Assembly: GCF_057098645.1 (NCBI RefSeq)
Contig: NZ_CM169472.1
Strand: one strand, 5' to 3'
DNA length: 64,000 bases
Shown: piece after piece, positions 12,001-15,000 of the stretch
Layout of the letters: each line of letters opens with the position of its first letter
How positions within the stretch are numbered: the stretch's first letter is position 1
Made by a program: the position numbers

Positions 12001-15000
12001 AGTCCTGGCAGTGGCGGGAAAACAACCCAATGTGGATCCAGTTGCACAGCCATCTGGATGACAGCCTGTATCGCAAAGAGTGGTTGGGCGATCACAAACA
12101 GATCCTCGCCGCGTTAATCAAAAAAGATGCCCGAGCGGCGAAGCTGGCAATGTGGCAGCATCTGGAAAACGTTAAGCAACGTCTGCTGGAATTCTCGAAC
12201 GTTGACGATATTTATTTTGACGGCTATCTGTTTGATTCATGGCCGCTGGATAAAGTCGACGCCTGACTTATTATAATAAGCGCAAGGGTAAACGTTCCTT
12301 GCGCTTTCTTAAATTAAGAAGTCGCAATGAGTATTACTTTGTAAATTGCAGGGTATTGTTTAAATATCTGTATAACCTGAATATTAGTACTCATTCTTCT
12401 CAGTGGCTATTTACCAATATAATTCCATTCACCATTTTTTAATTCAAACAGTTCTGGAAGAGATGACGGTTGCAGAGTCATGCGTTTGAGTGGCGCATCT
12501 TCATCACCGGGGATAACTTTATATCCCATTTTTGCATGGATCTCCGCGGTACCAGGATAGGCTTCTATACCAATGATTGGGTCATTTTCCATCTCAATAT
12601 TAGCATTAAGTAATGCGGCAAGGGCGAATCCGGAAGAATTTGCTACCCCTGAGACAGTTATTATCTGATCAATATAGATATCAATTCTTGGCTGCTCATT
12701 GGTCCATCTTTTTGCCTGAGAAACTGGAAGGGTTGAAATATATCCTATCGTGGTTCCGGCGTAACCTGGAACATTGCAACCAGGGCCTAATGTTATTTCA
12801 TGAACTGTATAGTCCTCAACAGGATCGAAAGGGCTCTTCATAAATAAATTTAGCCGTAAACCTTCTGCTAATTCTGTAGCAGCATGCGCCTTTTTACATA
12901 TGCCACCATATATTTCGTCTAAAGCTGAGGTGATTTTCAAGTTTCGATAGAGCATACGTCCTGTTGTTGTAATACCATCGAATTCTCTGCATGTATCTGT
13001 CACATAATTAAATGGCCAGGACTGTTTGCCAATATTAAGTTTTCTAATTTCGACAACGCTTTTTCCATCGTAATTATGGTTATTGCCACGAGCAAGAGGC
13101 AGAAGATAGATATTTTCCGTATCCATGCGTGCATATTCATATCGACGTGTTAACTCATTGTCGACTTTTGGGTGATGAAGGAAGTGATTATCTGTAATAA
13201 TTTGACTCTGAAGGGTATTGCTTAATGGCATAGACATAATAGTTACCTTTTATGAGTATTTCACTGATGTTTAGAAAAATAGATAAATTTTTCTGTAGTA
13301 AAAAGAGAAGTAAACAAATGACATGCATGTTTCTGTTGTAGTGATATCAACTCTACACAGTGATATTAAAGGGTAGGAAATACTCTAAAGTATCAAAAAA
13401 CGCTCATTTAAAATTATTTGCATGCAATTTAAAAGCATATCTTATTACTAATTGGAATTTGATGTTGCTATATTGAGGTCTATATTAATAATGCCTGTGA
13501 ATGGTATTTTTGATGTATTTGATATGTTATTAATTTATATTATTTACAAACTAATTGTTTCAAATAATACATGGCTGATTATGCGGAAATAAATAATTTC
13601 CCACCGGAATTAAGTAGCAGCGGTGACAAGTATTTTCATCTACGTAACTATTCGGAATATTCAGAATATACTAGCGGTTTTTTTTTGAGTTTGATGATTT
13701 TTATCAAATCATGACTTTTTTCCTGAAAAGTCAGTAGATATTCATAGGCAAGTAAGGTTTTATACTTTGCTGACAGGATTCAGGCCTGTCTCAGACTGAC
13801 ATGGATGTAATGAACAAAAGGGAATGGCTATGGAAAATGAGCATCAATACAGTGGTGCCCGGTGTTCAGGGCAAGCCGCATATGTTGCTAAACGTCAGGA
13901 GTGCGCAAAATGATGCGCCAATCACTTCAGGCTGTTTTAACTGAAATTTCAGGCAATAAAACGTCATTGCTGCGTAAATCGGTATGCAGCGATCTCCTCA
14001 CTCTTTTTAATTCTCCTCATTCGGCATTACCGTCATTACTTGTTTCAGGCATGCCCGAGTGGCAAGTGCATAACCCGAGCGACAAACATCTCCAGAGCTG
14101 GTATTGCCGTCAGCTGCGTTCTGCACTGTTATTTCATGAGCCACGGATTGCGGCGTTGCAGGTCAATTTGAAAGAAGCGTACTGCCACACGCTGGCGATC
14201 AGCCTTGAGATAATGCTGTACCACGACGATGAACCGCTAACGTTTGATCTGGTCTGGGATAATGGCGGTTGGCGCAGTGCGACGCTGGAGAATGTCAGCT
14301 AAGCACAATCTCCAGCTCGCGCAGTTCACGCCAGAAGCGTTCGGCAACGGGATTCATGCGGGTATTCATCCGGTATGCGTAGGCCTGAATCGGGATCACC
14401 TGTTCGTCCCGATTCAGCACAACGAGCTGCCCGCTGCGAATTTCTTGTTGGATGGCATACTCCGGCAGCCAGGCAATCCCACAGCCGTCGAGGGCAACCT
14501 GCTTTAAAAGCTCGCTCATCGAAGAGACAAAAAAGGTGCTGAAACTTAACTCACTGTGGCGCGTCAGGGTGCGATTAATCAATCGCCCCATGTAGGAGTT
14601 GCGGCTGTAATTCAGTAACGGAAAGTGTGGCTGCGCGAGGTTAAAAAGTGCTTCTCCGTGTTCGTCACTGGCGCAGACAGGGAACAATTGAGATTCAAAT
14701 AAGCGAATGTGGTCAAACGGCGCTTCCAGCAAATCTTCGTCGTGAAAGGAAAAAATACAGTCACTTTGCCCTTCACGCAGTTTATCGACCGCTTCATCGA
14801 CATCAATGGCTTCAATTGCCCAGGTAAAGAGCGGCGGCATCTGGCTGATAATGGACGGTAACAGACCGAGGGAAAGAGAGTGTGCAGCGGCTATCTTGAT
14901 TTTACGTTGCGCGTAATCGCTGCCGCCACGCAGCTCTGCAAGGTTACTTTCTAACTGTTGCAACAGATGGCGGATCTGCGAATGGAAGATTTTCCCTTGT

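Follow-up and report, generated by a model that had tools for sequence, protein, structure and literature searches.

Small translated frames in bacterial leaders

Bacterial leaders contain translated small open reading frames that are not conserved, a phenomenon termed “pervasive translation” on the basis of ribosome profiling in E. coli. The leader of iraD, which encodes an anti-adapter protein, harbors three small frames described in some detail. Transcription starts at two promoters, P1 and P2, with a distance of 280 nt between the start sites (Park et al., 2017, mBio 8:e01355-17). P1 depends on sigma-70, and ppGpp, the transition to stationary phase and replication stress all induce it. 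The frame adjoining iraD, idlP (b4722; ORF27), encodes the iraD leader peptide and is required for translation of iraD via coupling, and its ribosome-binding site is covered by CsrA sites. Of the two frames further upstream, ORF47 was translated in K-12, as an ORF47’-’lacZ translational fusion (−498 to −323) was expressed, and ORF23, the tested form of ytiC (b4720) with its own fusion (−498 to −376), was likewise translated in the reporter; start-to-stop mutations of either frame left iraD’-’lacZ unchanged (Park et al., 2017, mBio 8:e01355-17). These assays covered iraD’-’lacZ in ordinary growth only, not AZT or other stresses. After AZT treatment, ytiC is induced 260-fold, ytiD 33-fold, idlP 18-fold and iraD 14-fold; the genes were described as co-transcribed, and no gene of that data set is induced more strongly than ytiC. 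The bioRxiv text of Weaver et al. on ribosome profiling makes no mention of ytiC, ytiD or idlP.

Organization of the yjiC-iraD gap

The window analyzed here is a stretch of 64,000 nucleotides from NCBI RefSeq assembly GCF_057098645.1 (contig NZ_CM169472.1), which stems from an E. coli strain other than K-12. yjiC (12407–13237, minus strand; ORF list and RefSeq annotation), coding for a DUF2686 protein (Pfam PF10887, E = 1e-150), is the left neighbor of the gap and is divergently oriented relative to iraD (13910–14302, plus strand; annotation and NCBIfam NF010726, E = 1e-90), whose ATG is found at 13910. The original prediction, made from the sequence alone, had pointed to an AT-rich gap of about 670 bp between the two genes. 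The gap indeed measures 672 bp (13238–13909), with a G+C content of about 32% (0.318 overall, 0.23–0.29 across the gap core in 200-bp windows), and corresponds to the region published as promoter and leader of iraD. It is 99.9% identical to the gap of the O145 strain RM9872 and differs from that of MG1655 at three positions, none of which is located within ytiD.

P1 was recovered by a promoter scan at 13459–13493 on the plus strand (TTGATG, 16-nt spacer, TATATT at 13481–13486), and its published start site at −417 maps to G13493. The gene ytiC (13491–13592, plus strand), annotated with 33 aa in RefSeq MG1655, matches the Pfam family PF23685 (YtiC-like, E = 2e-25), and ORF23 starts within it at the ATG at 13524 (−386). 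P2 (13761–13773, plus strand) has the −10 element TATACT at 13761–13766, and its published start site −137/−138 corresponds to 13773/13772. The four published CsrA binding sites fall within 13774–13839 on the plus strand, namely BS1 (GGA at 13776–13778), BS2 (13798–13807), BS3 (13820–13826) and BS4 (13832–13833); the footprint positions −112 to −103, −90 to −84 and −78/−77 all fall on G residues when mapped to the window. A DnaA box at −81, TATGGAAAA, was placed by coordinate mapping at 13829–13837 on the opposite strand (Sass et al., bioRxiv). Finally, idlP (annotation, Park et al. and review) covers 13830–13913 on the plus strand, and its TGA stop overlaps the iraD ATG in the sequence ATGATG.

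The gap had been proposed to be mostly regulatory DNA with complex promoters that respond to stress, and with a possible small ORF. The regulatory part holds, as P1, P2, the CsrA sites and the DnaA box have all been published in exactly these 672 bp. The other part was worded too cautiously, since the ORF is not merely possible but is the annotated gene ytiD, for which reporter translation is known. Furthermore, only one small ORF had been named, and ytiC/ORF23 as well as the functionally important idlP/ORF27 were overlooked. The promoters, the CsrA sites, ytiD and the leader peptide idlP are thus all published and annotated already.

Identity and features of ytiD

The predicted 47-codon frame, with an ATG at 13571, a TGA at 13712–13714 and precisely the translation given, was found again at 13571–13714 on the plus strand. 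It is the known gene ytiD (b4721; YP_009518831.1), i.e., ORF47 of Park et al. (2017, mBio 8:e01355-17): the 47-aa sequence is 100% identical to MG1655 YtiD and the frame occupies the same place between promoters P1 and P2 of iraD. On the MG1655 genome, ytiD has the coordinates 4556654–4556797. The RefSeq name in the best-matching genome is “protein YtiD.” The ytiD start is at −339 relative to the iraD ATG, between the start sites of P1 (−417) and P2 (−137), and 19 nt ahead of the ytiC stop codon, i.e., both frames overlap; the ytiD stop is 196 nt upstream of the iraD ATG. No Shine-Dalgarno sequence was found before the ytiD ATG, where the upstream sequence reads CAAATAATAC. The T9 run that had been noticed is located within the frame at 13678–13686 (plus strand; codons GGT TTT TTT TTG), and a predicted HusR (YnfL) box CAGAATATACTAGCGG, taken from the gSELEX table of PMC12844172, was located inside ytiD at 13662–13677.

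When the 672-bp gap was shuffled 5000 times with dinucleotides preserved, 23% of the shuffles contained an ATG frame of 47 codons or more on the plus strand and 44% contained one on either strand; thus, the length of ytiD alone is not beyond chance. When only the 281-nt P1–P2 stretch was considered, the value was 5%. AlphaFold, run on the single sequence, predicted one long helix for YtiD residues 17–46 (mean pLDDT 72.5). A helix predicted for a protein of 47 residues is generic and not very informative. The hydrophobic stretch at the C-terminus comprises approx. 10–12 residues and is too short to span a membrane.

Conservation and selection

Protein databases were searched for YtiD relatives, and none were detected outside Escherichia/Shigella among 5.8 billion proteins. 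HMMER, run exhaustively against 1.84 billion representatives, returned just 10 hits, none below 78% identity, and no Pfam or NCBIfam family matched YtiD. The pN/pS ratio of ytiD is 0.79 in frame vs. 0.83 and 0.57 off frame, a noisy estimate based on only 27 variants, whereas the control gene hypT has 0.08 in frame vs. 2.89 and 1.76 off frame. For iraD the ratio is 0.31 and for the 5′ end of yjiC 1.2, which indicates that the whole locus evolves fast; ytiC has 0.63–0.70. The original prediction had named a lack of codon-level conservation, along with missing ribosome occupancy, as evidence against a coding role of the small frame, and the former is what we find.

The start codon of ytiD is frequently lost: ATA replaces ATG in 1042 of 4755 complete E. 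coli genomes (21.9%), strain M217 (NZ_AP019189) being one natural carrier of this allele, and two records read directly confirm the change. Nevertheless, the name ytiD is propagated by annotation pipelines even where the start is ATA. A further 491 complete E. coli genomes (~9%) carry a compact uxuR-iraD locus without yjiC, ytiC and ytiD, in which an idlP-like frame is kept. An intact ATG frame of ytiD is present in ~68% of the complete E. coli genomes. Length variants of the T run are rare in exact 80-mer counts (T9 4577, T8 41, T10 23), resulting in frameshifts in ~1.3% of complete genomes. Such variants also appeared in 5 of 73 metagenome-derived sequences, a proportion judged to be inflated by low-coverage assemblies given the figure for complete genomes.

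A counterpart of ytiD is missing from every other Escherichia species examined, including E. albertii; at the position matching ytiC, E. albertii carries a hydrophobic frame. Among the 131 Escherichia loci inspected for idlP, on the other hand, 125 keep its 27-codon frame, and the remaining six differ at the first residues. ytiD is not retained everywhere iraD is, being absent from the 491 E. coli genomes mentioned and from other Escherichia that have iraD and an idlP-like frame. A scan of representative genomes with the IraD peptide detected only Escherichia loci and one contaminated “Bacillus” contig. Taken as sequence evidence, these results suggest that YtiD bears no sign of a conserved, selected protein and that the peptide is not under selection.

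Conserved DNA upstream of P2

The amino acids encoded by the 3′ half of ytiD hardly vary. This half is covered by a block conserved at the DNA level (13640–13772), which runs past the ytiD stop and contains inverted repeats at 13690–13711 and 13712–13733. Nucleotide diversity (pi) is 0.005 at 13641–13714 and 0.0005 at 13715–13771, vs. 0.034 in the 5′ half of ytiD, and the 80-mer 13646–13725 is identical in 4577 of 4814 genomes. Since the conservation continues past the ytiD stop into P2, it looks like that of promoter DNA, and the near invariance of the YtiD 3′ half is explained equally well by constraint on the DNA. The block can also be aligned to the compact-type locus and to other species of Escherichia. 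Sequence found only in the yjiC-containing locus type makes up the 5′ half of ytiD, and old promoter DNA upstream of P2 its 3′ half.

RNA structure of the leader

No terminator-like site was detected in the region by a terminator scan. At a permissive E-value, an Rfam scan gave nothing better than E = 0.04, with just two sub-threshold hits, both to eukaryotic families. The local fold around the T9 run is unstable (−5.2 kcal/mol, z = +0.9) and no stem-loop precedes the run. The predicted fold of the P1 leader is more stable than all 200 shuffles (z = −4.55). Predicted stems carry 33 of the 43 leader SNPs (67% of the positions are paired) and show no depletion of variants, and compensatory base changes were not observed in the P1 leader, both within the low diversity of E. 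coli. The 280-nt leader is poor in C (34 C).

Discussion

The ytiD frame is real and is translated in K-12 according to the reporter, but YtiD is unlikely to be a protein under selection. We consider it likely that the YtiD peptide is a young, lineage-restricted by-product of the translation of an AT-rich leader. ytiD lies within the 280-nt part of the leader that is transcribed solely from the distal promoter P1, and is translated in K-12 at a low level, with no Shine-Dalgarno sequence. Initiation probably occurs via the unstructured AT-rich start region or by ribosomes finishing the overlapping ytiC/ORF23; we infer this route, as well as the absence of a YtiD function, from the data above. 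Translation of ytiD is without effect on iraD, as shown by others, and the conservation of its 3′ half would belong to DNA elements upstream of P2. Control of iraD translation in the gap is exerted by idlP and its CsrA sites.

Like idlP, ytiD is small, is translated and belongs to the same leader and transcript. However, the idlP stop overlaps the iraD ATG, CsrA binds over its ribosome-binding site and iraD translation needs it for coupling, whereas ytiD is not conserved, stops 196 nt short of iraD and leaves it unaffected. A role as a coupled leader peptide of the idlP type was considered for ytiD and rejected: its stop does not adjoin the iraD start, there is no attenuator terminator and the frame is not kept together with iraD. 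ytiC and ytiD are overlapping small frames in the P1-specific leader, and both are translated in reporters without an effect on iraD. In contrast to ytiD, ytiC has a Pfam family, but its pN/pS is also unconvincing. ytiD also resembles frames known from pervasive translation, which are equally short, lack a Shine-Dalgarno sequence, have an AT-rich start, are translated but restricted to a species and are devoid of signs of purifying selection. Unlike most of these, which are known from ribosome profiling only, ytiD has been named as a gene and assayed with a reporter.

Several other explanations have to be weighed. YtiD could be a functional, E. coli-specific micro-protein acting in trans in replication stress or stationary phase, e.g., in RpoS control or damage tolerance. 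Translation of the reporter fusion, the 33-fold increase of ytiD with AZT in a data set topped by the overlapping ytiC, the long predicted helix and a frame intact in most genomes are in favor of this, but we regard it as unlikely, because relatives are confined to Escherichia/Shigella, pN/pS in frame resembles the off-frame values, ATA starts are common, and 491 genomes have lost ytiD while keeping iraD and the idlP-like frame. The helix is generic and the C-terminal hydrophobic stretch too short for a membrane. It is a little less likely still that translation of ytiD, together with ytiC, acts in cis irrespective of the peptide sequence, with ribosomes stabilizing the P1 leader, blocking premature termination or remodeling its structure. 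The two frames span the greater part of the P1-specific 280 nt, the predicted fold is unusually stable, and AZT induction declines along the transcript (260 → 33 → 18 → 14-fold), which might point to attenuation but is explained equally well by dilution with basal P2 transcripts. Against a role in cis, mutating the start of ORF23 or ORF47 to a stop left iraD’-’lacZ unchanged, the scan revealed no terminator-like site, stems show neither compensatory changes nor fewer SNPs, and the ATA allele is common in nature. Moreover, Rho loads best on C-rich RNA, and the leader is C-poor.

The original prediction had also allowed for an sRNA. An independent small RNA formed from the P1-proximal segment, for instance ending at the T9 run, would fit the rise of ytiC reads far above those of ytiD or iraD after AZT and the position of the run ~190 nt downstream of where P1 starts transcription. 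We dropped this option as very improbable: a terminator was not found, the T9 run has no stem-loop ahead of it and an unstable fold, the Rfam hits are sub-threshold and eukaryotic, and co-transcription of the region with iraD has been reported. Just as improbable is that ytiD is an ORF which regulatory DNA contains purely by chance and which is never translated. An equally long frame arises in 23% of the shuffles, and neither a Shine-Dalgarno sequence nor codon-level conservation is seen, but the published ORF47’-’lacZ fusion was expressed.

Two counterpoints to a mere by-product of leader translation deserve mention: the reporter translation in K-12 is real, and the transcript is strongly increased under replication stress. 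Given both, a strain-restricted function of YtiD may exist. There is a slim chance that ytiC and ytiD, which are among the transcripts raised most by AZT, are new E. coli-restricted micro-proteins, or that the P1 leader is a structured RNA, with a role in a LexA-independent response to replication stress. If so, the common ATG/ATA polymorphism would naturally switch that function on or off.

Since publications already cover ytiD, P1 and P2, the CsrA sites and idlP, the discovery value of the locus is small. The comparative result, namely that ytiD bears the typical marks of a frame that formed recently and is not selected, is of modest value. ytiD is a clean example for two debates: what share of “validated” small proteins has a function, and how new frames emerge from regulatory DNA.

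Identity of the 47-codon frame and its place in the iraD control region

The window is from E. coli, and the 672 bp gap (13238–13909) between yjiC (12407–13237, minus strand; Pfam DUF2686) and iraD (ATG at 13910; 13910–14302, plus strand, 130 aa, b4326; NCBIfam IraD match with an E-value of 1e-90) has a G+C content of 0.318, falling to 0.23–0.29 in its core. The AT-rich gap and a frame of 47 codons, opening with ATG at 13571, ending at 13714 and overlapping a T9 run (13678–13686), were confirmed, and the translation is exactly the peptide originally proposed. When the gap is shuffled with its dinucleotides preserved, 23% of the shuffles contain a plus-strand ATG frame of at least 47 codons, so the length of the frame is unremarkable by itself. 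Using megablast, the gap matched 4,903 of 5,426 complete E. coli genomes (4,890 near full length), and the annotations beneath the match read ‘ytiD: protein YtiD’, ‘ytiC’ and ‘idlP: iraD leader peptide’. In MG1655, these are ytiC (b4720, 33 aa, 13491–13592), ytiD (b4721, 47 aa, 13571–13714) and idlP (b4722, 27 aa, 13830–13913). The 47-codon frame is a rediscovery of the already known ytiD; YtiD and IdlP are identical in the window and MG1655, with three differences over the entire gap. A second 47-codon ATG frame (MDVMNKREWLWKMS...) at 13801–13944 overlaps CsrA site BS2, idlP and the iraD start in a different reading frame, and other Escherichia have a shorter frame (MSINPVV..., 35 aa) in the same phase.

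The iraD leader is known to hold three translated frames, ORF23 (ytiC), ORF47 (ytiD) and ORF27 (now idlP). Fusions of ORF23 and ORF47 to lacZ (translational) were both expressed, ORF23 more strongly, and turning either start codon into a stop left iraD'-'lacZ unaltered; the stop codon of ORF27 overlaps the iraD ATG, and CsrA, with four sites around the idlP ribosome-binding site, represses iraD entirely via translational coupling (Park et al., 2017; PMC5574718). Their numbering was transferred with the iraD ATG (13910) as +1, which places the start within the ORF47 fusion (−498 to −323) at −339 (13571), the ORF23 start at −386 (13524), and the start sites of the distal promoter P1 and the proximal promoter P2 at −417 (13493) and −137/−138 (13773/13772), respectively. 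As a check, the reported RNase T1-protected positions (−112, −103, −90, −84, −78, −77) are all G in the window. The annotated start of the 33-aa ytiC (ATG 13491–13493) straddles the published P1 start site (G13493), so that P1 mRNA cannot encode this form, which PF23685 matches over all 33 residues; barring an undescribed upstream promoter, P1 mRNA can encode only the shorter ORF23 form (ATG 13524), the one used by Park et al.

Sass, Ferrazzoli and Lovett treat the same ‘672 bp’ region and report late-log induction of P1, constitutive activity of P2, a response of both promoters to ppGpp and to the replication-stress treatment AZT, and an additional effect of SspA on expression. Evidence on a DnaA box at −81 (TTTTCCATA; 13829–13837, opposite strand) conflicts: Sass et al. 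observed binding by EMSA and an influence of the box, whereas a later ChIP-seq study detected no DnaA binding upstream of iraD. In an AZT RNA-seq study, ytiC, described as co-transcribed with iraD, was the top induced gene (260-fold; ytiD 33-fold, idlP 18-fold, iraD 14-fold), independently of LexA. A gSELEX study predicted a HusR (YnfL) box (CAGAATATACTAGCGG; 13662–13677) within ytiD. With the published P1, P2 and CsrA sites all falling in this region, the expectation that it is mainly iraD regulatory DNA was borne out.

Codon constraint and start codon of ytiD within E. coli

A 24-mer from the idlP/iraD junction that is invariant served to collect 120 metagenome loci; with the genome loci added, the set comprised 73 sequences of K-12 locus type. 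The original prediction held that missing codon-level conservation, along with absent ribosome occupancy, would speak against the frame, and no codon-level constraint on ytiD was found among these sequences: pN/pS was 0.79 in frame vs. 0.83 and 0.57 in the other two frames of the same DNA, and 21 of 27 variants were non-synonymous. The method recovers strong constraint in the control gene hypT (0.08 in frame vs. 2.89 and 1.76 off frame, same loci); iraD reached 0.31. Nucleotide diversity fell from 0.034 in the 5′ half of ytiD to 0.005 in its 3′ half and 0.0005 between its stop and the P2 start site; the P2 leader showed no diversity (0), and idlP had 0.002. Conservation therefore tracks the distance to P2, not frame boundaries.

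Two further observations concern the flanking genes. The first 100 nt of yjiC (13138–13237; 36 segregating sites, pi 0.076, pN/pS approx. 1.2) are far more variable among E. coli than the neighboring intergenic DNA. Furthermore, of 63 loci with an E. coli-like hypT (>95% identical), 8 have an iraD allele sharing only about 80% identity with that of the window; the sequences suggest either two allele classes or recombination at the locus.

The ytiD start was typed by megablast with four 43-nt allele queries centered on it, whose central base must match because megablast needs a 28-nt exact word. The resulting genome sets were disjoint and sum to 4,755 complete E. coli genomes, with ATG in 3,603 + 110 and ATA in 805 + 237 (21.9%). 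The G-to-A change at 13573 simultaneously converts TGG of ytiC to TAG, and no substitute ytiD start exists due to an in-frame TAA two codons upstream. Two ATA records were read directly; PGAP still called ‘protein YtiD’, starting at ATA, in one; in the other, which additionally carries a T8 run, the gene is marked ‘frameshifted’. Exact counts of 80-mers over the T run (T9 4,577, T8 41, T10 23) indicate about 1.3% frameshifted copies. The 80-mer 13646–13725, covering the 3′ half of ytiD and its stop codon, is identical in 4,577 of 4,814 genomes (95%).

Distribution of ytiD and idlP

For YtiD, 72 clusters emerged when 5.8 billion proteins were searched with a word index; every organism-named match was Escherichia or Shigella, and match lengths ran from 25 to 79 residues due to frameshifts and truncations. 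Exhaustively scanning 1.84 billion representatives with HMMER gave 10 proteins, none below 78% identity. YtiD has no model in Pfam or NCBIfam, unlike YtiC with its Pfam family. In E. albertii the region is alignable, but the ytiD ATG is gone, stops interrupt the frame and other small frames are present instead. A compact uxuR-iraD arrangement lacking yjiC, ytiC and ytiD occurs in 491 complete E. coli genomes (approx. 9%), and several other Escherichia lineages (loci L005, L007–L009) share this spacer of about 415 bp. E. whittamii, Escherichia sp. E1V33 and two divergent ‘E. coli’-labelled genomes have no yjiC and carry uxuR about 400 bp from iraD; their homology to the window begins at about 13640, in mid-ytiD, and continues through P2 to iraD.

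In contrast to ytiD, whose start is lost or whose frame is absent in many genomes, idlP retains 27 codons in 125 of 131 loci, the other six differing at the first residues. Its stop overlaps the iraD ATG in those 125, with an invariant junction, the same sequence having been used to gather the loci. The ends, ME(N/Y)EHQ and KRQECAK, are largely preserved around a variable middle. Compact-type E. coli keep a 27-codon idlP-like frame (MEYEHQPSGVRQPGQDTDATKRQECAK), unannotated there. In E. coli A32 (locus L132, 1534–1947), the downstream neighbor is a ptsP-like gene, not hypT. A 605 bp contig deposited as Bacillus coahuilensis m4-4 (NZ_ABFU01000118.1) encodes IraD at 98% identity; the assembly is almost certainly contaminated with E. 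coli DNA here.

Possible RNA roles and probable origin of the ytiD frame

A small RNA, also considered originally, is not supported: the gap showed no terminator-like site in a scan and no credible Rfam match, and no stable hairpin precedes the T9 run (−5.2 kcal/mol, z = +0.9). The P1-specific leader (13493–13772), on the other hand, is predicted to fold stably (−71.2 kcal/mol, z = −4.55; none of 200 shuffles reached this stability), much of this stability being supplied by two adjacent inverted repeats, TTTGATGATTTTTATCAAATCA (13690–13711) and TGACTTTTTTCCTGAAAAGTCA (13712–13733). However, no pair showed two-sided changes in the population data, and SNPs were not fewer in predicted stems (33 of 43, vs. 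67% of positions paired); thus, there is no sign that the structure is selected. Positioned 40–85 bp ahead of the P2 start site, the repeats could just as well be DNA bound by proteins and may represent unassigned regulator sites; the compact locus type retains the inner CTTTTT...AAAAAG of the second repeat.

For the peptide, AlphaFold predicted from the single sequence a disordered N-terminus and one helix (residues 17–46; mean pLDDT 72.5), a model we consider uninformative. The absent codon constraint, the ATG lost in about a fifth of genomes and the frame missing in about 9% suggest that YtiD is not kept by selection. A strain-restricted function, or a role in cis of ytiD translation under stress, is possible but unsupported. 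Most likely, the leader of P1 transcripts is AT-rich and lacks Shine-Dalgarno sequences, and ribosomes would start on it at ORF23 and, with lower efficiency, at ORF47. The ytiD frame itself would be a junction between yjiC-locus-specific sequence, contributing the 5′ half with the ATG, and an older block preceding P2, contributing the 3′ half. PGAP nevertheless keeps calling ‘protein YtiD’ in genomes with an ATA start. Function in the gap resides in the two promoters with their upstream elements, in the CsrA sites and in idlP.
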